NCBI GenBank assembly: GCA_050950505.1
Contig: JBMNHS010000001.1
Location: 736,001 to 800,000 of the forward strand
Direction of reading: 5' to 3'
From: Candidatus Methanomethylophilaceae archaeon
GTDB lineage: Archaea; Thermoplasmatota; Thermoplasmata; Methanomassiliicoccales; Methanomethylophilaceae
Length of the DNA stretch: 64,000 nt
Positions 40,955 through 61,497 of this stretch are shown piece by piece (positions within the stretch are counted from its first letter, which is position 1; each line of letters begins with the position of its first letter). A program made the translations under genes and the position numbers. The notes beneath the pieces are model-generated. The model worked only from the letters and a program-made list of their open reading frames with translations, had not been told where the DNA came from and did no database searches.

Positions 40955-41113
40955 TCTAAAACAGATATATTAACGCTGTTTAATAATCAGAATCCGTAAA
41001 TCAATTCACAATTTAACACTGTGAAACGTTGGTTTTATAATAGATTAACAGGATACTCAGAATTGCAAGGGAGTACAGGGCCCAACCCTGTAGAATATAA
41101 ACGGAGGTAAAAA
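40955..41113 (+). promoter_or_regulatory. Putative mcr promoter/leader
   Basis: AT-rich region with TATA-like ATATATTAA and TTTTATAA, a hairpin at 41074-41092 and RBS GGAGGT. Confidence 0.5.
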
Positions 41114-42445
41114 ATGCCAAAATACGAGGACGTAATTGACTTGTATAGCGACGAGGGAAAAGTTCTTGCGAAAGACATCCCCCTTGAAGCAATCAGTCCG
41201 TTGCGCAACAAAGCCATCCAGAGGATTGCTGACCTTACCAAGAGGACCTGCGCCGTCAACCTCGCCGGAATTGAGAGCTCTCTCAAAACCGGTTCGATGA
41301 TGGGCGGTATGTTGATCAAAGGTAAGGAAATCGACATCCCCTTGGTGAAAAATGCTGATAAGATTGCGAAAGCAGTCAAAGAAATGATTCAGATATCCCC
41401 GGACGACGACACCAAAGTGGAAGTCAAATCCGGAGGAAAGAGCTTGGTCGTTGTATTGCCCGAACAGAGGGCCAACGTAGGTATCGAGTACACAACCGGA
41501 TTCACATCCACCGCTGCTGCCGTTACCGAAGCGATCATAGACGAATTCAACATCCCTATGTACAAGGCCAACATGGTCAAGGGAGCCGTTTGGGGAAGAT
41601 ACCCTCAGACCGTCAACTTTGCAGGATCCAACATCAGATCCATTCTTGAAGTTCCTCAGAACAACGAGGGTGCAGGTTACGCTCTCAGAAACATCATGTC
41701 GAACCACGTTGTAGCGCTTGTTGACAGAAACGCGATGCAGGGAACTGCGCTGTCCTCGATCTTCGAGCAGACCGCAGCTTTCGAGATGGGAGACGCCATC
41801 GGTCCGTTCGAAAGGGGTCACCTCCTCGGACTCGCATACGTAGGTCTCAACGCCAACAACATGCTCTACTCAATAGTCAAGAAGAACGGTAAGACCGGAA
41901 CAGTCGGTACCGTTATCGAATCCATCATGGAAAGGGCCATTGATGACGGTGTCATCTATGTAAAAGAAACCCTCCCGTCCGGATACAAAGTCTACACGAC
42001 CGATGACCTCCCCCTGTGGAACGCCTACGCGGCGGTCGGACAGGTGGCGGCAGTCATGGTGAACGTCGGTGCGGCAAGAGCCGCCCAGGGTGTGCCCTCC
42101 ACAGTTCTGTATTACAACGATCTGCTTGAGCACGAAACCGGACTTCCCAGCGCCGACTACGGCAGGTCTATGGGAGTTACCGTCGGAATGTCATTCTTCT
42201 CTCACTCCATTTACGGAGGAGGAGGACCCGGTCTGTTCCACGGAAACCACGTTGTTACCAGACACTCCAAGGGTGTTCTGATCCCCGCCATCACCGCAGG
42301 TAACTGTCTTGACGGCGGAACGCAGACATTCTCCGCTGAAGCAACGTCCGGAGCCTTCAAAGAAGTTTTCGGTGACTTGGAAGAATTCCGCCGCCCGATA
42401 CAAGTCGTCGCGGCCGAGGCGAAAAAGATAAAGAAGAAGGTCTGA
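41114..42445 (+). CDS. mcrB: Methyl-coenzyme M reductase beta subunit
   Basis: WGRYPQ, GYALRNI and [14 protein letters not shown]. Confidence 0.99.
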
Positions 42446-51593: not shown

Positions 51594-52154
51594 ATGGTTA
51601 TACGAATGTACAGTTCTCTGAAAGAGACGGAGGTCATCACCGACGATGCATATCTTGTCGGAAATATTCACGACGTCAATTATTCGTCCAGATCCTGGGA
51701 TGTTCACTCTTTGTTCGTGCGCGGTGTCAAAGGATTAGGGGATGTGTTGGGGGCATCCGCCTTCAGAAAACTTCAATTCTCTCTGGTGGTCGACGATTAT
51801 GCGTTGAATGATGTATTGTTGATCCCGGAAACCCGCGATCAATTGCAAAGGGCGTTGGCTTCCGATGAAAACGACACCGAAAAGATTGGCAGTCTGATTG
51901 GAAAAACAGTGATGTCTTTGGACGAAATCCCCATAGGAACCATCGAAGATGTAGGTATCGACACGGATGCTTGGAAAATCAATTCTTTCAAGGTAAAAAT
52001 GGAAAAAAACGTCGCCACCGCATTGGACATAAAACTGGGTCTGTTGAACAAAACGGCTTCCGGTCTGTTGACCAACCATGTGGAGTCCGTCACAAAGACC
52101 GTGAATCTGGCCCACAAAGTGGAAGAACTCCGCGGTTATTTCACTCTGGATTGA
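51594..52154 (+). CDS. Tandem PRC-barrel protein
   Basis: Two repeats of L.G/E..V...D...G.I.DV..D...W. Confidence 0.78.
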   Translation: MVIRMYSSLKETEVITDDAYLVGNIHDVNYSSRSWDVHSLFVRGVKGLGDVLGASAFRKLQFSLVVDDYALNDVLLIPETRDQLQRALASDENDTEKIGSLIGKTVMSLDEIPIGTIEDVGIDTDAWKINSFKVKMEKNVATALDIKLGLLNKTASGLLTNHVESVTKTVNLAHKVEELRGYFTLD

Positions 52155-52707
52155 AGTCGTCAAAAGCCACTATTATAGATGCAAGACGCGAATCGTCTTC
52201 GTATCCGTAATATTCTTTAATCAACAAATCCGAAGTTGGGGCGGGACTGCATGAGATGACTCTCGTGCATCCGTTCTCTTCGGACAATTCCGGGAATGGG
52301 ACCGGCGGCAATACGAAAGCCTCCTCTCCCTCGCCTTTTATATGAGGGAACATTACAAAACTTTCCGACAACCAGACGATATCTTCCCGGTCTTCGTATT
52401 TTTTGAACGTGAAGGGAAACACTTCGGTCCCCAGCAACTTGCCTTTGGAATCCATAAGGATGACGGTGGCTTCGGGCGGAGGTCTGAATCGGGGATCTTT
52501 GATTATGCAGATGAGATGATCCCTTTCAAGAGCCTCCGCGAAGCCTGTGTTTTCGACATCGACATAACCTCCGATGGCCTTGACTTTCGCTTCTTCTTCC
52601 TTGAGGGTTTCGACCAAATCTCTGTCAAGGTAAAAACAGTGTACTACGCCTCTGAGGTTCTTAACGATGTCAAGAGGTTTTTTAGGGCCATGGCTATTCG
52701 ATATCAT
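52141..52707 (-). CDS. Hypothetical protein
   Basis: 188-aa ORF with FRPPP and PPVPFPEL..SPAP motifs. Confidence 0.75.
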   Translation of the reverse strand: MISNSHGPKKPLDIVKNLRGVVHCFYLDRDLVETLKEEEAKVKAIGGYVDVENTGFAEALERDHLICIIKDPRFRPPPEATVILMDSKGKLLGTEVFPFTFKKYEDREDIVWLSESFVMFPHIKGEGEEAFVLPPVPFPELSEENGCTRVISCSPAPTSDLLIKEYYGYEDDSRLASIIVAFDDFNPE

Positions 52708-52735
52708 ATTATCCGTCCTTTTCGGAATTTAACGT

Positions 52736-53062
52736 TTACTCTATATTTATAGAAACGTCTTTTTTGAGACCCATTCCGCCGGCAACTTCTACGGCCTTTA
52801 AGACTCCGCAGGGCACCGGGCAGGTTGCATGGGGCAAATGTTCGGTGGCCAGTTTGTATATCGTGGTCGTACTGACGGGAGCTTCGACTTCCAAATAGGA
52901 TGTTATGGGTTCCAAATGGGGGGCCAACTCCTGAAGGTATTCACAATCGGTGTCGAGTGTTACGGTCACAACGCCCATATCATCTCCGACGGCTGTAATC
53001 ACAGTAATTCTTTTGCAGGCACCTGCATCCACAGTTACTTTACATTCAGTCATTTTCATCAC
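52736..53062 (-). CDS. Small Cys-containing protein (DUF6951-like)
   Basis: GAC, TDC and HATCPVPCGVLKAVE. Confidence 0.7.
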   Translation of the reverse strand: MMKMTECKVTVDAGACKRITVITAVGDDMGVVTVTLDTDCEYLQELAPHLEPITSYLEVEAPVSTTTIYKLATEHLPHATCPVPCGVLKAVEVAGGMGLKKDVSINIE

Positions 53063-54008
53063 TGCTCAGTCTAATCAGATTATCCGCACCCGCCATAGAC
53101 CTGATATCAACAACGCCTACGGCTGCGATGACTCGATTATCTAAGTCGATAGGGGTTACAATTACCTTTATACCTTTGTACGGGCCGGAGGTTGCAATCT
53201 TCCGAATTGTGGTTCCCACATTGATTACCTCTTCCAAAACCTGACCGGTGTAGGTATTGTCTATAACTGTTCCGTTTTCTATCCTGATGCCGAGATTGTC
53301 CCGGCTTTTCGCACAGACCGGCAATCCCCCCACCAAATCATGAATGGCAAAAGCGAGGGAAACGAGTTCGTTTCCGGTGCTTCTGTGACTAAGGATATCT
53401 TTCAGATCCCTGTCGAACTGAAGTCCGCCCATAAGGGTCAGGGCCGCGATGACGGCGCCTTCTTCGGCCACGGCATGGGTTTCCCCGGTGCCTATGATTA
53501 TGACGTCTTCGTTCCGTATGCTTACATTCGCCCAAAGCAAATCGTTGAGTTTGTTGTCAACGGGATATCCGGAGCCCGGGAACATCAATCGGCCGTTGTT
53601 GCAGATGAGGGTTGTCGCCCCCGTTGCTCCCGCCTTGATGGCCACATCCCGTTCTTCGCAACCGTACTTTACTCTGGACGCCATCTTGGATACCCTTACA
53701 ACGCAATCGTATTCTCCGATAGTCAGGGATTCTGCGTCAAGATGTTTGATTTCCATATAGGCGGAATTGTAATAATCGGTACCTTTTTTGTTAATGGAAA
53801 CGCCGCTTTTGTCAATATCCACAAGACCGTGTTCCTGAAGTATTCCCAAGATAGTTCTGGTGCTGCCCTCTCCGACACCAATCATCGAGGACAGTTTTTT
53901 ACGTCCGATCGGATTATTCTTATCGAGACAGTCCAACGTCTTCCAAATATGGTAATCGCTGAATTTGGGTATGGGTCCTCCTGCGCCTTTGCGATGTTGG
54001 GTAAGCAT
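53046..54008 (-). CDS. wHTH/DUF4443-DUF2111 fusion, putative regulator
   Basis: IGRKKLS..IGVGEGSTRTIL HTH, ERD.AIKAGA.GA, and C-terminal GLPV..S...GPYKG..VIVTP..AAVGVVD. Confidence 0.75.
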   Translation of the reverse strand: MLTQHRKGAGGPIPKFSDYHIWKTLDCLDKNNPIGRKKLSSMIGVGEGSTRTILGILQEHGLVDIDKSGVSINKKGTDYYNSAYMEIKHLDAESLTIGEYDCVVRVSKMASRVKYGCEERDVAIKAGATGATTLICNNGRLMFPGSGYPVDNKLNDLLWANVSIRNEDVIIIGTGETHAVAEEGAVIAALTLMGGLQFDRDLKDILSHRSTGNELVSLAFAIHDLVGGLPVCAKSRDNLGIRIENGTVIDNTYTGQVLEEVINVGTTIRKIATSGPYKGIKVIVTPIDLDNRVIAAVGVVDIRSMAGADNLIRLSSDEND

Positions 54009-54038
54009 ATGGATGTATCAATCATCCATGTTTATAAA
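54009..54038 (-). promoter_or_regulatory. TATA box plus operator-like inverted repeat
   Basis: ATGGATG-N7-CATCCAT (54009-54029) next to TTTATAAA (54031-54038). Confidence 0.6.
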
Positions 54039-54164
54039 CTAACCGCCAAAAAAGGACATTTGTGAAATATGCCCGGCTGTGCCGGCGGATAAAAGCAGAT
54101 TAATTTCGTCAACGCCGTTGAATTTTTTAAGAGTGTTTTAATATCCTCGGTTCATTTCCCATAC

Positions 54165-55787
54165 ATGGTCAAAGAGTCGGTAGACTTCATTATAATAGAG
54201 AACGTCACAAAGAAATTTGGTGAGAAAACTGTACTTGATGGTGTGAGTGCAACCATACAAACCGGGAAATCGTTAGGACTTATCGGGAAAAGCGCCGCAG
54301 GTAAAAGTGTGCTCATTATGATGTTGAGAGGAAGCGGAGATTATGCTCCCACGACGGGACGTGTGATTTACAGAGTGAACAGATGCGTCGAATGTGAGAA
54401 TCTGGACCTTCCCTACGAAGGTACGCCCTGTACGAAATGCGGTTCCGATACGAAAACAATCTCCGTCGATTATTGGTCTCTCAGCGATGACGATGTTCTG
54501 AAACGACAGATGAGAAGTCGCATTGCTATCATGTTGCAGAGAACCTTTGCGCTTTTCGGTGACAAAACCGTTATTGAAAATCTTTTTGAAGCTATCGGCG
54601 ACCGTGCCGAGGGCAAAGAAAGGACCGAAATGGCATTGGAAATTCTCGAATTCGTCGGAATGACTCACAGGACGACCCACATTGCGAGGGATCTTTCCGG
54701 AGGAGAAAAACAGAGAGTGGTTTTGGCAAGGCAGATTGCCAGGAACCCCCTGTTTTTGCTCGCGGATGAGCCTACGGGAACTTTGGACCCGTACACCGCC
54801 GAAGTCATGCATGACCGACTCGTGAAGTATGTCAACGAAAAAGGAATCGCAATGGTTTTTGCCTCCCACTGGCCGGAAGCCGTCGAAAAGATGGCCGATG
54901 AAGCCATCTGGCTTGACGCGGGAAAAGTCGTCATGCAGGGAGATCCGAAAGAAATATCCGATAAGTTCTTGGAAGGCTACTCTTTCGAAAAGAAAGAATC
55001 CGAGAATTTGGGTGAGCCCATCATAAAATTGGAAAATGCGGAAAAGCATTTCTTCTCGGTCATCAGAGGCGTGGTCAAAGCGGTTGACGGGGTAACTTTC
55101 GAAATAAGAGAAAGGGAAGTTTTCGGATTGGTCGGCAAATCGGGCGCGGGCAAAACCACCACGTCCAGAATGATTGCCGGAATGACTCCCGCCACGGGAG
55201 GTTCCGTCGAAATCAAAATCGGTGATGATTGGATCGACATGTCCGAAATCGGAATGGCCGGAAAAGGACGGGCGACACCGTACATAGGATTCCTTCATCA
55301 GGAATACACGCTGTATCCTTACGACAACGTCCTCAGCAATCTGACCACAAGCATAGGCTCCAAGATGCCTGCAGAATTGGCCAAGTTCAAAGCCATGCAG
55401 GTGCTGGAAAGCGTCGGATTCGCCAAAGAAGGGATGGAGGATTTGCTTTATTCATATCCCGATACCCTTTCCGTCGGGGAATGCCAGAGAATCGCTTTCG
55501 CACAGGTTCTCATCAAAGAACCCAAAATAATTTTATTGGACGAACCCACGGGTACGATGGATCCGATTACAAAAACAATCGTGGCAAAATCGGTCATCCG
55601 CGCCAGAGAGATTCTCGGTGAAACTTTCATCGTCGTAAGTCATGACATGGACTTCGTTGAAAATATATGCGACCGTGTCGCTTTCATTGCCGACGGTAAG
55701 GTAAAGGCCATCGACACTCCCGATGCGGTCATCGGCCGATTCGGTTTGGAAGAATTGCAGGACAACGAATCGGACACGGGTGAATGA
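54165..55787 (+). CDS. atwA: Methyl-coenzyme M reductase component A2
   Basis: Two ABC domains with a Zn insert; [12 protein letters not shown] and [16 protein letters not shown]. Confidence 0.96.
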
Positions 55788-56409
55788 AGTGAAAAAACAA
55801 ATCGGCCGTCACCTGAGTTTCGTTGAATGCAGAGAGGCCATGGGTCTCGGGGTAGGAGGAGCTCTTGCTCAGAGGGCAACCATTTCCGACAGCGGAAGAG
55901 ACGTGGTCGCTGTGGCAATGGGCCCCGGCAAAAGACACATAACGAAACCCGTGTGCGAAATCACGTATGCCCTAAGGGAAGAGGGAATAGACACCAGCGT
56001 CCTGGTGGTGAACGCAGGCTCGGGAGTACCTTCCGACGCTCCCGACGTGACCACCGGTTCCAGATTCGGATTGGATCCTCTGGAAGTGGACAGACTCCGT
56101 CAGTTCAAAGTTATGATTATTCACTTGGGAAACGTACGTAACCATATAACGTACAAAGCCCGGTTGGTCCTCAGAAACGTGGATTTGCCGTCGATAGTCG
56201 TGGCTCAGTGCCCTGTTGATTTCGAGGACTTCGCCGCGATAGGCGTGAAAACGGCTCACGTCATGCCCGCGGACGAGGATATTCAGACCCGGGGATACAT
56301 AGCCGACATCGTCACCGGCGTGGTCAGGGGAGTCACCTGCCCCCAGGAAAAATTGGACGAGATAGTGTCCAAATTACATGCGGTCATGCCGAGAGGTGAA
56401 CGCAGATGA
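55780..56409 (+). CDS. mcrC: MCR protein C
   Basis: [27 protein letters not shown] and [11 protein letters not shown] start at 55780 or 55789. Confidence 0.94.
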
Positions 56410-57920
56410 AAGTATTCGTCAACGGAAAATTGAAAGTATTGGAGGAAGGCGCAACCCTCGGAGACGCAATCGAAGGCGAGACTTACAGCGAAGGTTCGCT
56501 GATGGCCGTCCATCTTTCGGTGGACACCGTTACCAAAACCACAAACGATTTTGAACTCGTTCTTGAAAGAGGAACGATGGTTCTCCGTCTGGACGACACC
56601 CCCGATGCGGAACTGTTCAGAAATATAATGAACGATGTCGAAGGTTCCACGGCCAGATGGGCTACCAGGAATCTTGTGTCCTTCGGTTCATTCCCGACCG
56701 GGATAGAAGCGACGGCCGAAGACAGAATGTATCGCAGATATGACTGTTTCTTCTCTCTGGGGGGAGGGGACAACCACACCACTTACATGATGATCGCCAA
56801 ACGGGATCACCGTGATTCCTACGGAGCGGGTTCCGGAAGAATCGGCCGCATAACCGTGGGGAGACATCTTTTGGACAACGTTCGGGAAGGAGAAAACATA
56901 ATCGAAATACGTCCGGTCATGTCCGAAACAAGCACGGACAACGTGGAAGTGACCTCCGATCTGTCCTATGAACTCAAAGAAGGATATTCCGTTTCCACAA
57001 ACATTCTGTTGGAACTGAATCCCAAAGCCCCGATGGCGGCGGAACACGTGCTCATAGCGACTTCAGGCGGGAAGTTCGACGTGACAGAACCTGCGGGAAG
57101 CTTCCTGGCGAATTCGGGATTTATTGATGCGGACATAAAACAGGAATTTTCCGACGTCAGGGAACCCGGTTCCGTAACCGTGAGAAACGAAGGTCTGGGC
57201 AACGGACGCATTTTCATATACAAAGACAAGAGACAGATATCCCCGTCGCACAGTTCGGCGGGCAAAGTGACCCGTGGGCTGGCTTTGATATCCATGGCCA
57301 AGGAGGGCGATTCCGTGGCCGTGGTCACCGACCCGCCGAGGATACTCGCCGTGGGCATGACCCAAAGTGAAGGCGAAGACTATCTTAATGCCGCGGGAAT
57401 CAAACAAATCAGAAAGGGGGACCTGTCCGATGACGCGATAGTGGTCGAACAGGTTCCCGAACGCACCATGGATGCTTTGGCCGCGGGAAGCGTTGAAACC
57501 TTTGCCGTGCCCCGCGACAGAATATACAAAATAGAAATATCCGCCGATGACAGGGAAACCGTCAGATTCTTCAGGAGAATCACGGGATTGGACCACAAGT
57601 CCGTCGGTTCCATGAAAGTGCAGTTCACTTTCGAAGGGGCGCAGATGATAACGTTCCACGGTGACGAGGAAAGAGGCAAAACCCTTCTGCCTCAGGAACC
57701 TTTCAAGAACGTCAAACGCGGAGACATAGGCGTGACCAATCAGGTGCGTCCGATGAGAGGGCTTCTGGGAATACGCCTGGAAGACAGCAAATCATACGGG
57801 CCTACGGGAGAGGAAGCCTACGGAACCAACATAGTCGGAAGTTTCCTGGGAAACCTGGACAAAATGCTTGGAGAAGCGGAAAGCGATAAACCGATTTACA
57901 TTACGGAGACAGACATATGA
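56406..57920 (+). CDS. mmp3: Methanogenesis marker protein 3
   Basis: Cyclophilin-like repeats, VTVRN.G.G.G.I.IY, IGVTNQ and YGPTGE..GTN. Confidence 0.9.
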
Positions 57921-58333
57921 GCGACAACAGGGAAACCAGACTGCTGATGATTTCACCCAGGTCAAAATTGACTCCCGATCAGCTTGTGCGTACCATTCAC
58001 GCCATGAACCGGGACGTCAGGATGAAAGAGACCTGTTACGGTGCCGTCATAGAAGGAGAAAAATTCGCGTTGAAGGCACTTACCGAAGAAATACGCGGGA
58101 AATATCCCAATGAAGTGTATTCAAAGCGCAGGGCCTACCCCGCGGGGGACCAGAGGAGATGCCGCGCGCACCATGGAACCCGGCCGGGATACAGCCAACT
58201 GGAAGCCGAATGGGACCTTCTTTCCAACGTTCAATACGGTCTGGAATGTGCCGACAGGGGAGAGGAAAGAGTACCCCTGAAAGCAAAAGAAAAACTGCCA
58301 ATACTGGAATTTAAAAGAATTTGCGAGGAGTGA
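57917..58333 (+). CDS. mmp6: Methanogenesis marker protein 6
   Basis: KETCYG and GD.RRCRA..G.RPG..QLE.E. Confidence 0.9.
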   Translation: MSDNRETRLLMISPRSKLTPDQLVRTIHAMNRDVRMKETCYGAVIEGEKFALKALTEEIRGKYPNEVYSKRRAYPAGDQRRCRAHHGTRPGYSQLEAEWDLLSNVQYGLECADRGEERVPLKAKEKLPILEFKRICEE

Positions 58334-58335
58334 CG

Positions 58336-58770
58336 ATGAAGATTTTTATAGATCCGCCGAACAGTCTGATTCTGTTCGACATAGTGGAGAGATTCGGGCA
58401 TGAGCCCCTGAGTGCCATGGCCGCCATACAAGAGAGGATAGACAACTTGGAGATTGACATGCCGCCGATGAACGTGACCCTGGATGACGTGGTCAACGGA
58501 CTTGAGTATGCCGGCGTGGAAGTTCCTTCGGGGGTGAGAGGAAGACTCGCTCTCTGGGGACCGATGATAGAAGAAGCGGATGCGGCGATAATAATGGAAA
58601 ACGCCCCGTACAGCTTCGGTTGCGTGGGCTGCGAACGCTCCAATGAGATGATTAAATATCTCATCATAAAACGGGGCATACCCCAACTCCGTGTTTCATA
58701 TCCCGGAACCGAGGAGGAAGCCAAAGACTTCGTTCTCAGCACCAAAGAATTCCTGGAGGGGCTCGAATGA
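58336..58770 (+). CDS. mmp5: Methanogenesis marker protein 5
   Basis: [23 protein letters not shown] and FGCVGC.R.NE. Confidence 0.92.
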
Positions 58771-59990
58771 CGATCAAAATAGCACAGCTGTCCTGCGGTA
58801 CGGAATACAGCAGCGTTCAGCACGAAATAGAAAAGGCCGCATTGTCGGTCGGGGCAAAGATGGTATATCCGGACGTGGGCGCCGCCGACGTCGACAAAGC
58901 CGTGAAACGGTTCGGATTCAATCCCCACTCCAATCAGTTGAAAATCATGATAGCCAGGGCCGCCGCCCTGGCAGACGGGAAATATGACGCGGATGCAGTT
59001 TTCATATGTACCTGTTTCAGATGTGCCGAGGCGGCGCTGGTAAGAAACGAACTGAGAAGATTCATTCAGGATTATACCGATCTTCCCGTCGTCACATATT
59101 CTTTCACCGAGAGGCTGAAAGCCTCTCAGATGCTGACGAGGATGGAGGCTCTGGTCACAATCGTCACGAGAAAAGAGCTTTTGGCAAGGGAAAGGCAAAC
59201 CGGCCTCAGCGCCGGTCTAGATTCCGGTTCCAGTACGACCAAAGCCGTCGTCATGGAAAACAACAAAATCATCGGAAAGGCCTGGACGGGTTCAGGGGAT
59301 GTTGTGAAATCCGCCGACCAGGTTCTCACCGAAGCGTTGAACCAGGCGGGCTATGAACTCAAGGACCTGGAGGCCATAGGAACCACGGGATACGGCCGAT
59401 ACACCCTCGGAAAGCACTATAACGCAAAACTTGTCCAGGAAGAACTGACGGTCAACTCGAAAGGCGCCGTTTGGCTTGCCGACAGGCAGAGAGGGGAAGC
59501 GACCATTCTGGATATCGGAGGAATGGACAACAAAGCCATCACCGTCCGTGACGGAGTTCCCGACAACTTCACAATGGGCGGTATCTGTGCGGGCGCTTCC
59601 GGAAGATTTTTGGAAATGACCGCGAGAAGAATGGACGTAAACATCGAAGAATTGGGCCCCTTGGCAATGAAAGGAAACTGGAGAAACGCCAAGATGAACT
59701 CTTACTGTTCCATTTTCGGTATTCAGGATCTGGTAACCCAATTGGGGGAAGGAAAGACCTTCGAAGATGTGGCCGCGGCCGCCTGTCATTCCGTCGCCGA
59801 ACAGGTTTACGAACAGCAGCTTCAGGAGATTGACGTAAGACGCCCGATTATTCAGGTTGGGGGCACTTCGCTGATCAACGGCCTGGTGAAAGCCGTGGGC
59901 GAAATATTGGGCGAGATGCCCATAGTCCCGCCGGAATCTCAGTACATCGGTGCCGTCGGAGGCGCTTTGCTGAGCTCGGGGATGCTGTGA
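58767..59990 (+). CDS. mmp15: Methanogenesis marker protein 15 (ASKHA activase-like ATPase)
   Basis: [29 protein letters not shown] and CAGASGRF. Confidence 0.93.
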
Positions 59991-59999
59991 GGTAATATC

Positions 60000-60566
60000 A
60001 TGGAAATCACGGTCCAGGGAACGGATCCCTTCGGGAATGAGGAGTACGAGACACTGTTCCGTAACATAATGAACGACATGGGGGATGCCATGGCGATTGA
60101 GAAAGCCCATCTTGTTCTCAAAGCCGAAATACCCCTGTTCGTGTTCTCGGTGAAACTGAGAAGCGAACCCGAGAACAGAAAAATCTCCGATGTGGCAAGC
60201 ATAAGGGCGGAAGGCGACGGAATCCATATCACCATCACCGACGAGCGTTACGCCCCGGAGATTCTGGACAGGATGTGGATGATGTACGGAAGGAACAGTG
60301 TCGAACAGCAGACCCGTTTCGACATGTCTGTTTCCGGAGCTAAAATGGATGACGTGGCGAACACGGTGGTCGCTTCCGGAGAAGAAGCGTTGAAAGAAGT
60401 CATCGGTTCGGTCTGGAGGTCTATGCCGGAAGGCATCAGGGTCCGCGAATCCTTCATTACCGGAACCGTTCTCACGGTGGTTGCCACCGAGGAAATCATG
60501 TTGCCCGAATACAGGAAAGAAGGCGTGGACATCCACGTGATGATGGGAGGTTCCCCTGATGTTTGA
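60000..60566 (+). CDS. mmp17: Methanogenesis marker protein 17
   Basis: DERYAP..L..W..YG and PEG.RV; position in the operon. Confidence 0.85.
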   Translation: MEITVQGTDPFGNEEYETLFRNIMNDMGDAMAIEKAHLVLKAEIPLFVFSVKLRSEPENRKISDVASIRAEGDGIHITITDERYAPEILDRMWMMYGRNSVEQQTRFDMSVSGAKMDDVANTVVASGEEALKEVIGSVWRSMPEGIRVRESFITGTVLTVVATEEIMLPEYRKEGVDIHVMMGGSPDV

Positions 60567-61497
60567 AGTTATAATGTACGACGGCGGTGTTTACCGTTCG
60601 TCAGAACTTTTCGAGAAAATAGAAGATGTGGGCGGCACCGTTCTGCAGAGAATCAGAAGTTCTCAGATGCTGACGGTGACGATGTCGATTCCCAGTGAAG
60701 ACAAGGAAGACATCGTCTCACTTTGCACCGAAATCGGAGGGGACGTCAAAGAAGTTCCTTTGGCCGGAACCGAAATCGCCGTCGTGGGTCCCACCTTGGG
60801 ACGTCATCACATGCCCCACCCCATATGCGACATAGCCGAAGCCCTGCGGAGAAAAGGCGCTTTGACCATAGTCATGGGATTGGCCAGAGGCAGAGGCAAA
60901 CACACGTCTCAGATTTCAGCATCCGAAATCGCAATCATAAACGAATACGATGCGGCGATATTCTGTCTCGGGAATTTCAGTCCATGCATCAAAGCCAAAG
61001 CCGAGATGATGAAGGACATCAAAGTCCCTCTGATACTTGTCTGCGGTCCGCCAATGGAAAATTTCGAAGATTACTGCGAAGCCACGGTATGCGGGGTAGG
61101 CAGGAAATCCGAAAGGATGAGATCTTCTCAGGAAAGGGGCAAACTCAACGAAATAGTGTCGACAATGGAAGACATTCTTCACAATAAACGTAAGATGTTG
61201 TCCGAAGATCCGCTGTTCGTTCATCCTTCGGAGGTCAAACAGGTCTTGGAGAATTACCAACCTTTGGACATGTGTCTGAGGCCCTCGCCAATAGTTCTGC
61301 ACATGGACGGCCTGAGGGCGAAGATACCGTATGCCGAGAATATCGAAGCCATCGGAAACATGGAGATATACGGCAGAAAACTGAAGGACATAGCCACAAT
61401 CACCGAATCCAAACTGGACAACAGCAGTATGCTGGTAAAAATAAAAACGGCTTCGGAGGTCGAATACGACGACAACCGTGCCGAAAAACATCCGTAA
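60559..61497 (+). CDS. mmp7: Methanogenesis marker protein 7
   Basis: GGVY..E.IEDVGG, PLAGTEIAVV.PTL and HHMPHPICDIAE. Confidence 0.92.
   Translation: MFEVIMYDGGVYRSSELFEKIEDVGGTVLQRIRSSQMLTVTMSIPSEDKEDIVSLCTEIGGDVKEVPLAGTEIAVVGPTLGRHHMPHPICDIAEALRRKGALTIVMGLARGRGKHTSQISASEIAIINEYDAAIFCLGNFSPCIKAKAEMMKDIKVPLILVCGPPMENFEDYCEATVCGVGRKSERMRSSQERGKLNEIVSTMEDILHNKRKMLSEDPLFVHPSEVKQVLENYQPLDMCLRPSPIVLHMDGLRAKIPYAENIEAIGNMEIYGRKLKDIATITESKLDNSSMLVKIKTASEVEYDDNRAEKHP

Follow-up and report, generated by a model that had tools for sequence, protein, structure and literature searches.

The window analysed here is a 64-kb stretch (64,000 nucleotides) of the 1.33-Mb genome of a Candidatus Methanomethylophilaceae archaeon, and coordinates refer to it unless they carry the prefix G000, C1 or C2. 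On its minus strand lies the gene of a 320-residue protein, P0001, for which a preliminary description, made from the sequence alone, had suggested a role as a ligand-sensing regulator of the activation of methyl-coenzyme M reductase (MCR). Herein, we describe this gene (the regulator gene), the palindrome in its promoter, and related palindromes elsewhere in the genome and in relatives from the order Methanomassiliicoccales; all functional statements are computational. The gene, its domains and its promoter elements are as follows.

53046 to 54008, minus strand: regulator gene, encoding the 320-residue winged helix-turn-helix (wHTH)-DUF4443-DUF2111 protein P0001 (open reading frame (ORF) with translation, and Pfam)
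53793 to 53957, minus strand: wHTH, residues ~18 to 72 (AlphaFold2 model and Foldseek)
53433 to 53720, minus strand: DUF4443 domain, residues 97 to 192 (Pfam E 8e-29, match to 2p8t, model)
53103 to 53345, minus strand: DUF2111 domain, residues 222 to 302 (Pfam E 1e-30, model, likely GAF/PAS/Cache-like fold)
54009 to 54029, no strand: putative palindromic operator ATGGATG-N7-CATCCAT, with the core TGGAT-N9-ATCCA at 54010 to 54028 (sequence, conservation)
54031 to 54038, minus strand: TATA box TTTATAAA of the regulator operon (sequence, aligned promoters)

The start codon of the regulator is the ATG at 54008 to 54006 on the minus strand. The product had been read as a fusion of a wHTH, DUF4443 and DUF2111, and the Pfam domains on the 320-residue product bore this out. 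CggR_N (PF21715) matched residues 24 to 80 with 36.7 bits (cut-off 30) and PH0730-like_N (PF22167) matched residues 32 to 77 with 33.1 bits (cut-off 30.2); DUF4443 (PF14544) scored 99.9 bits, and DUF2111 (PF09884) scored 106 bits over profile positions 1 to 82 of 83. By its N-terminus and DUF4443 (PF22167 plus PF14544), the protein is a member of the PH0730-like wHTH-DUF4443 family. No NCBIfam model matched it. The SorC sugar-phosphate-binding domain was not found with Pfam, residues 97 to 302 being DUF4443 and DUF2111, and the HTH_IclR and IclR effector profiles were absent among the Pfam matches at E values up to 0.01. All 41 genomes of the order that were searched had an ortholog. Across 17 orthologs, G46-E47-G48-S49-x-R51-T52 was invariant, and the invariant polar residues of DUF2111 were H223, R242, E244, D250, E259, Y277 and D301.

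The whole-protein AlphaFold2 model, built from a 17-sequence alignment, had a predicted local distance difference test score (pLDDT) of 80. Its winged helix consisted of helices at residues 18 to 30, 36 to 43 and 47 to 59 and strands at 63 to 66 and 69 to 72 (pLDDT ~90), and two alpha/beta modules lay C-terminal of it, DUF4443 also at pLDDT ~90. In the Foldseek search with the whole model, PH0730 (2p8t) ranked first (E 2.6e-10, target-normalised TM-score (TMt) 0.76), and IclR regulators and tandem-GAF segments came next. The CggR DNA-binding domain on its operator (7oyk) superposed on the wHTH with a root-mean-square deviation (rmsd) of 0.8 over 63 columns (0.7-0.8 for DNA-bound CggR overall), and by sequence alone residues 28 to 185 matched PDB entry 2p8t (E 3e-9). 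When DUF2111 was modelled alone, pLDDT was 81.5, and the top 50 Foldseek matches were all Cache, PAS or GAF sensor domains, the best being Tlp3 with middling scores (E 5e-4, query-normalised TM-score (TMq) 0.58). VIA-align gave Z 8.6 to DevS GAF-B (2vks; rmsd 2.7, 95 aligned) and Z 8.5 to CitA PAS, and the DUF2111 matches as a whole had Z values of 8.0-8.6 with 95-108 of 116 residues aligned. A GAF/PAS/Cache-like fold class is thus likely, if not proven, for DUF2111. As the preliminary description had expected, the N-terminus was modelled as a winged HTH; for DUF2111, a GAF/PAS/Cache-like sensor fold is likely, with middling scores.

In a sample of the phylum, DUF2111 was present in 24/24 genomes of the order and in 0/177 others. 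Of 14 control genomes, the two methanogens (M. jannaschii and M. acetivorans) were the only ones to have it, and the clusters of stand-alone DUF2111 proteins carry the label Methanobacteriota. Within these data (phylum sample, 14 controls and stand-alone clusters), DUF2111 was restricted to methanogens. In other methanogens it is a stand-alone protein of ~125-140 residues. A profile search of 1.84 billion representatives yielded few full-length three-domain clusters. In the same library of representatives, P0137 is a permuted fusion, DUF2111-wHTH-DUF4443; because DUF2111 is fused in two different domain orders, in P0137 and in the regulator, it appears to form a functional unit with wHTH-DUF4443. 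Two further architectures from the library were a double DUF2111 (P0143) and a response-regulator fragment with DUF4443 and DUF2111 (P0133). Literature searches found no mention of DUF2111, DUF4443, PF09884 or PF14544. We take DUF2111 to be the same family as COG4029. Table 5 of PMC1852104 lists COG4029 as MMP0337, specific to methanogens, and the literature searches found no further mention of MMP0337 beyond that paper.

A perfect ATGGATG-N7-CATCCAT palindrome had been described between the TATA box and the start codon, and the sequence confirmed it: ATGGATG occupies 54009 to 54015, the 7-nt spacer 54016 to 54022, and CATCCAT 54023 to 54029. The arms end there, with T at 54008 facing G at 54030. 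When up to one mismatch was allowed, TGGATG-N7-CATCCA occurred once in the window versus 0.26 expected, and at least once in 23 of 100 shuffles; a single palindrome in 64 kb is not beyond chance. The significance of the palindrome comes from its conservation across orthologous loci. Sufficient upstream DNA was available for 108 loci, and the 93 non-identical promoters were used for the operator count. TGGAT-N9-ATCCA was exact in 68 and had one mismatch in 15 of them, whereas 1860 control windows from the same loci gave 0 exact and 4 one-mismatch occurrences. The arms were constant, while the flanks and part of the spacer varied among relatives. Alignment of 77 distinct promoters placed a T/A-rich box 4-9 nt before TGGATG, and in 57 of these the ATG began 1 nt after ATCCA. 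The palindrome is thus conserved in orthologous loci (83/93 promoters within one mismatch), as the preliminary description had required for its proposal to stand, and its place between TATA box and ATG is fixed, which fits the autorepression that had been proposed.

Since the centre of the TATA box lies ~27 nt from the ATG, the regulator mRNA is presumably leaderless; this spacing, together with the gene orientation, also points to divergent transcription. Distant families, with ~40% protein identity, hold GGATGGAT-N5-ATCCATCC at the operator position. The genome-wide scan foreseen in the preliminary description revealed no second exact copy of the 7+7 palindrome in the 1.33 Mb, and related palindromes elsewhere. 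With a weight matrix built from the regulator's own operators, its own site came top in the genome, at 25.2 bits versus 19.3 for the next. With its conserved palindrome between TATA box and likely start, the regulator gene conforms to the pattern of a putative autoregulated archaeal repressor. Of the wHTH-DUF4443 members seen here, the three-domain gene alone has such a site in its promoter, and autoregulation by its product is the most economical reading. In two metatranscriptome runs from one study, contigs of 161-1789 nt matched parts of the operon gene P3 (see below), the regulator and atwA-mcrC at at least 99% identity; from such contigs neither start sites nor strands nor expression levels can be read, an intergenic part is left uncovered, and DNA may be present in the library.

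To describe the related palindromes, TGGAT-Nx-ATCCA with x from 3 to 11 and at most one mismatch was scanned in intergenic DNA, genes being called as greedy ORFs. The genome had 18 sites with N5 and 13 with N9, while each of the remaining seven spacers gave 0-10. Corrinoid/tetrapyrrole genes are among those marked by these palindromes. The cobamide synthesis genes cbiD and cbiL face N5/N9 sites (two sites), and a cysG-N/sirC-like gene, a cobD-like aminotransferase gene and two Peripla_BP_2 binding-protein genes face TGGAT palindromes. A heme/corrinoid-type ABC ATPase gene faces two sites, and an MtaC gene faces an exact one; for a second MtaC and another corrinoid protein, there were one or two mismatches. 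Sites are also faced by a Fer4_NifH plus Oxidored_nitro fusion gene (NifH-NifD-like) and by a NifH-like gene. A 196-residue paralogue of P3 (C1:863173-863763; paralogy E 6.6e-9) faces an exact GATGGAT-N5-ATCCATC.

This P3 paralogue lies in a cluster (G000:C1:860282-866501, L032) that consists of Peripla_BP_2, cupin, tRNA-Gly, the P3 paralogue, an ABC-2 permease with ATPase, and the heme/corrinoid-type ABC ATPase, and that carries four TGGAy-N5-ATCCA palindromes (861470, 863782, 865526 and 865604). The genome has four NifH-like genes (G000:C1:977938-980097, C2:126714-127574, C2:131006 and C2:27329), one of them a NifD-like fusion, with no evident nitrogenase. All four scored below the CfbC and NifH cut-offs, and in two of them a TGGAT-type site immediately precedes the ATG.

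The sites were conserved in relatives. Their cbiL promoters had a site within one mismatch, abutting the TATA box, in 16/24 cases, and their mtaC promoters had one ~12 nt upstream of the TATA box in 13/28. In other genera, the palindrome adjoins the TATA box of a corrinoid-protein gene, and in one genus a CfbC-like fusion gene begins 4 nt after it. At mcrB, a composite site that is exact for both the N5 and the N9 spacing occurred in 13/29 distinct relatives at -125 to -141 from the ATG, and these relatives span families f2-f6 and one genus of f1.

L259-L261, L263, L265, L269-L271, L273, L274, L283, L285 and L286: mcrB promoters with an exact TGGATGGAnnATCCATCCA

In L146, the mcrB palindrome lies ~9 nt upstream of the TATA box, which is followed by a leader of ~100 nt. 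In part of the order the link to MCR is therefore real, but it runs by way of the structural mcr operon and not the activation operon, and it is not found in the present genome. In the window, the structural operon (mcrB start at 41114) is separated from the regulator and the atwA cluster by only 13 kb. Most relatives have mcrB and the regulator gene on one contig, at a distance of 4-16 kb where readable; in G017 and G030 the distance is >400 kb.

The pattern TTGGAY-N5-RTCCAA occurred 2-14 times per genome in 24/24 genomes of the order, versus 0-2 times for a reversed-pattern control; 17 genomes from sister families had 0-1 occurrences each. After the regulator's own site, the next best weight-matrix matches were three elements that follow TATA boxes in a tRNA cluster. 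At this place (G000:C1:615100-615480; L031, L152-L157), 1-3 tandem copies of a TATA box with ATGGATGGATGAYAYnTCCAT precede a conserved RNA of ~85 nt. Its 5' end forms a hairpin (AUGUCC/GGACAU), and a long GC stem closes the hairpin loop CCUCCUCCUU, which is anti-Shine-Dalgarno-like. The element was present in 15/15 genomes of the genus, with 0 for the reversed-pattern control. The consensus fold of the RNA had a few compensatory pairs, and Rfam at gathering thresholds found only tRNAs at the locus. Outside the order, the non-methanogen G060 has a perfect TTGGAC-N5-ATCCAA between TATA box and ATG (L257:3861-3875), before a PQQ-propeller/PKD protein gene and 1.4 kb from its two-domain wHTH-DUF4443 gene. 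The neighbours there, a DAO oxidoreductase and the PQQ-propeller/PKD protein, are not B12-related. The G060 site weakly backs a link between the wHTH-DUF4443 family and the motif.

From the domain content, the folds, the conservation and placement of the sites, and the functions of the site-adjacent genes, we infer the identity of the binder, its binding as a dimer, the sign of regulation and the type of ligand. The three-domain protein is probably an autoregulated, ligand-sensing factor of a corrinoid/tetrapyrrole and methane-formation regulon, for which a tetrapyrrole-type ligand is most likely. It would be a one-component transcription factor whose N-terminal winged helix, of PH0730/CggR-N type, would read TGGAT half-sites, presumably as a dimer, and whose DUF4443 and then DUF2111, as tandem small alpha/beta sensor modules, would set the affinity for DNA by way of a small molecule. 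Binding at its own operator would block recruitment of TFB and RNA polymerase, and such repression of the regulator-DUF6951-P3 operon would amount to negative autoregulation. Further targets would be TGGAT-N5-ATCCA sites, often in the composite form TGGATGGAT...ATCCATCCA, at or beside the TATA boxes of regulon genes. The predicted regulon would cover cobamide biosynthesis, BtuF/BtuD-type uptake, corrinoid methyltransferase proteins, the NifH-NifD-like fusion, the small RNAs and the P3 paralogue, with the mcr operon added in the order's other families. As ligand, coenzyme M or coenzyme B would be less likely than a cobamide, F430 or a precursor.

Several points weigh against this interpretation. 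The regulator's own operator has N9 spacing in this family, while most regulon sites have N5, and one dimer does not normally accept both, unless through composite sites or two binding modes. The composite sites TGGATGGAT...ATCCATCCA satisfy N5 and N9 spacing alike, and behind the two spacings there may be two modes of binding, or two factors. The motif is missing from 10/93 orthologous promoters, with at least three mismatches in nine (L017, L018, L020, L023, L090, L092, L095, L097 and L099) and two in L046. The mcrB promoter of this genome has no site, its best match having three mismatches, and atwA has no TGGAT-type site here either. Stand-alone DUF2111 occurs elsewhere, so its role need not be transcriptional everywhere, and the fold matches of DUF2111 are middling (Z 8.0-8.6, E 5e-4) and may mean a common arrangement only. 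The intergenic sites were counted on greedy ORF gene calls, and several N5 matches are probably due to chance, e.g. C1:1097170 and C1:1147832. Finally, this genome has three wHTH-DUF4443 paralogues with a common GEGSxR recognition-helix motif, which means that some or all of the sites could be bound by another of the three.

This last point leads to the alternative that survives best, although we consider it unlikely: the sites may be bound by a two-domain wHTH-DUF4443 paralogue, or by an unrelated protein, and the three-domain gene would be a target and not the binder. Besides the shared recognition-helix motif, the N5 sites far outnumber the N9 type, and G060, which has a two-domain member only, has its perfect N5 site 1.4 kb away; all three observations are in line with a different binder. 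Two-domain wHTH-DUF4443 paralogues number one or two per genome. The main one is found directly downstream of the S-adenosylmethionine (SAM) synthetase gene metK throughout the order (G000:C1:835651-837518; loci L237-L253), and this linkage points to a role connected with SAM or methionine. Upstream of this paralogue, the 16 metK-linked loci examined had no TGGAT palindrome, save for chance-level distant matches. Its fixed position behind metK and its lack of an own site argue against it as the binder, and the best genomic site lies in the promoter of the three-domain gene, which is the usual mark of an autoregulated factor.

The target named in the preliminary description belongs to the second alternative, according to which the protein also controls, from its own operator, the divergent atwA-mcrC-mmp operon and thereby sets the level of MCR activation. 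The features on the atwA side are the following.

54165 to 61497, plus strand: atwA-mcrC-mmp3-mmp6-mmp5-mmp15-mmp17-mmp7, the neighbouring operon, regulation of which by the operator is unsupported (NCBIfam)
54136 to 54144, plus strand: putative atwA TATA box TTTTAATAT, ~25 nt before the atwA ATG (sequence, relatives)
54110 to 54120, no strand: CAACGCCGTTG, the local form of a GTTAAC/GTTAA element on the atwA side (conservation)

The operon comprises all of the MCR-activation genes, and its first gene, A2/atwA, spans 54165 to 55787. A2, McrC, Mmp3, Mmp7 and Mmp17 form the ATP-driven MCR activation complex (PMC12176620), and the passages on the complex in that paper name no regulator. The statement that no characterised regulator of this operon is known held in the literature searches made, which found no transcriptional regulator of atwA reported for Methanomassiliicoccales. 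That the regulator is divergent from the operon was confirmed by orientation, by NCBIfam and by relatives, in which atwA was divergent in 28/28 loci with upstream DNA and in 76/80 further loci taken from named assemblies. The intergenic length had a median of 156 nt over 87 distinct loci, and relatives carry a 'gatataaaa' box ~25 nt from the atwA ATG.

This conserved arrangement speaks for control of atwA, as do the restriction of DUF2111 to methanogens and the palindrome beside the mcrB TATA box in 13/29 relatives, which ties the factor to MCR in part of the order. However, the operator lies ~107 nt from the atwA TATA box, and no second palindrome was present near that box. The intergenic regions are mildly enriched in additional TGGAT/ATCCA half-sites (38 observed versus 21 +/- 4.7 expected), which cluster at the regulator's own promoter. 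In some genomes, insertions of 1.4-3 kb split the two genes and the operator is retained, or almost so, at the regulator; it is exact in L086 and L100 and has three mismatches in L090. Moreover, the atwA side has a distinct conserved element of its own. GTTAA occurred 40-100 nt from the atwA ATG in 54/82 intergenic regions, while shuffles gave a mean of 6.5 and a maximum of 15.

Because the half-sites cluster on the regulator side and the atwA side has its own GTTAA element, direct control of the atwA operon by the regulator is unsupported, and this second alternative appears improbable. The target given in the preliminary description is probably wrong for this genome, in which the activation operon appears to have a different control element; the conserved synteny keeps a functional link between the regulator and the atwA operon plausible. 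As a core for the second element, AACGnCGTT was also considered and rejected, being exact in 6/82 and within one mismatch in 39/82 regions, and GTTAA fits better. In this window, TTAACGCTGTTTAA (40970-40983) and TTAACACTGTGAAA (41013-41026), just upstream of the mcrB TATA box, resemble CAACGCCGTTG and are words of the form TTAAC...GTG/GTT. A strict GTTAA-type word was present in only 4/29 mcrB regions, and the GTTAA-type element may be a separate control signal common to mcr and atwA promoters.

A third possibility, very improbable in our judgement, is that transcriptional control is not the protein's main task: the wHTH would make protein contacts and DUF4443-DUF2111 would act as a cofactor carrier or chaperone for the MCR machinery. 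The stand-alone DUF2111 proteins of other methanogens and the company that the gene keeps with MCR genes would suit such a role; the superposition of the wHTH on the DNA-bound CggR domain, the invariant recognition helix and the conserved palindrome in the regulator promoter do not. Hardly credible is an RNA hairpin, in a leadered transcript, that masks the start codon in place of a DNA site: the palindrome folds to -7.5 kcal/mol and both arms change together (TGGATA...TATCCA) in L019, L106 and L112, but the z-score is only -1.78 with 12/200 shuffles folding as well, many relatives alter one arm only (TGGATA...CATCCA and TGGATG...CAACCA), the site follows the TATA box by 4-9 nt and so lies upstream of the expected start, and at cbiL, mtaC and mcrB the motif is upstream of the TATA boxes.

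The autoregulated operon proposed here would include two more genes.

52736 to 53062, minus strand: DUF6951 gene, encoding a Cys-rich protein of 108 residues with HATCPVPC and overlapping the regulator stop codon (Pfam)
52141 to 52707, minus strand: P3, the third operon gene, encoding a 188-residue protein of an orphan family (no family match)

That two genes without characterised function follow the regulator, one of them with HxxCPVPC, agrees with what had been described. The DUF6951 gene adjoins the regulator in many, though not all, loci. In the phylum sample, the DUF6951 family was present in 23/24 genomes of the order and in 0/177 others, and of the 14 controls only M. acetivorans had it. 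There are three DUF6951 paralogues per genome; the other copies here are at G000:C1:278257-278559 and C1:69631-69909, in uninformative contexts (AIM24, Ham1 and transglycosylase). P3 lies downstream of the regulator in 27/30 loci and in most of a further locus set. It is highly conserved, and its relatives, all from the order, are named only 'hypothetical protein'. No Pfam, NCBIfam or PDB match and no usable Atlas match was found for P3. Two ideas about it were rejected. P3 is not a divergent Mmp17, as the true mmp17 lies at 60000-60566 and BLASTP of P3 against mmp17 gave E 0.058. Nor is the P3 paralogue at C1:844637 placed beside the F430 ligase gene cfbE, as its Mur-ligase neighbour is FolC by NCBIfam.

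Little has been established about how methanogens regulate MCR, its cofactors and the B12-dependent methyltransferases that supply it. The present results offer a testable pairing of a factor made of three DUF-type domains, one of them methanogen-restricted, with a well-defined DNA motif, and, for methanogens of guts and digesters that use methyl compounds, a coherent predicted regulon. Judged by the genes beside the sites, the likely regulon concerns how corrinoid/tetrapyrrole cofactors are supplied and used, with mcr added in other families. A bolder and tentative proposal, possible rather than probable, is that the regulator could be the master factor by which Methanomassiliicoccales couple methane formation to the supply of tetrapyrrole cofactors; it would then be the protein equivalent of the B12 riboswitch of bacteria. 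Taken jointly and no more firmly than this, DUF4443 and/or DUF2111 would bind a cobamide or F430 (or a precursor), and the protein would control cobamide synthesis and uptake, corrinoid methyltransferases, CfbC/D-like genes and the anti-Shine-Dalgarno-type small RNAs, besides its own gene and, in most families of the order, the mcr operon. If true, three domains of unknown function would each gain their first functional assignment, and the archaeal B12 regulator predicted two decades ago would possibly be identified. Confirmation would put a name to the ligand-sensing domains, explain the order-wide linkage of the gene with the mcr and atwA clusters, and give a handle on methane formation by Methanomassiliicoccales.

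Among known proteins, PH0730 of Pyrococcus horikoshii (2P8T) likewise has a winged helix followed by DUF4443, but it is only ~200 residues long, has no DUF2111 and was deposited by structural genomics as a 'hypothetical protein'; the literature searches found no function, site or ligand for it. The CggR/SorC repressors share the CggR_N-type DNA-binding domain, whereas their effector part is a SorC sugar-phosphate-binding domain in place of DUF4443 and DUF2111. The IclR family also joins a wHTH to a GAF/PAS-like effector, and IclR effector domains were among the fold matches (Z 6.2-7.9). Unlike IclR proteins, the regulator has no IclR match in Pfam, two sensor modules instead of one, and an archaeal promoter context. 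The archaeal repressors MDR1, LrpA, Phr and NrpR have their operators between TATA box and start. The regulator resembles them in that its putative operator lies immediately downstream of the TATA box, over the start region, a placement that blocks polymerase recruitment, but they belong to unrelated protein families, and DNA binding by the regulator is a prediction.

With regard to B12, Rodionov et al. reportedly described in 2003, in J Biol Chem, a 'CBL-box' signal for a hypothetical archaeal B12 regulator, and archaea are not known to have the B12 riboswitches of bacteria. Our literature searches on B12 regulators returned nothing on archaea and no match for the term 'CBL-box'. As for the CBL-box, a palindromic signal is found here upstream of cobamide synthesis and transport genes, a likeness at the level of the gene set. 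Both the bacterial cobalamin riboswitch regulons and the archaeal 'CBL-box' cover a gene set like the present one, with cobamide synthesis, BtuF/BtuD-type uptake and corrinoid-dependent enzymes; however, the cobalamin riboswitch is an RNA switch, whereas the system described here would combine a DNA palindrome with a protein factor.

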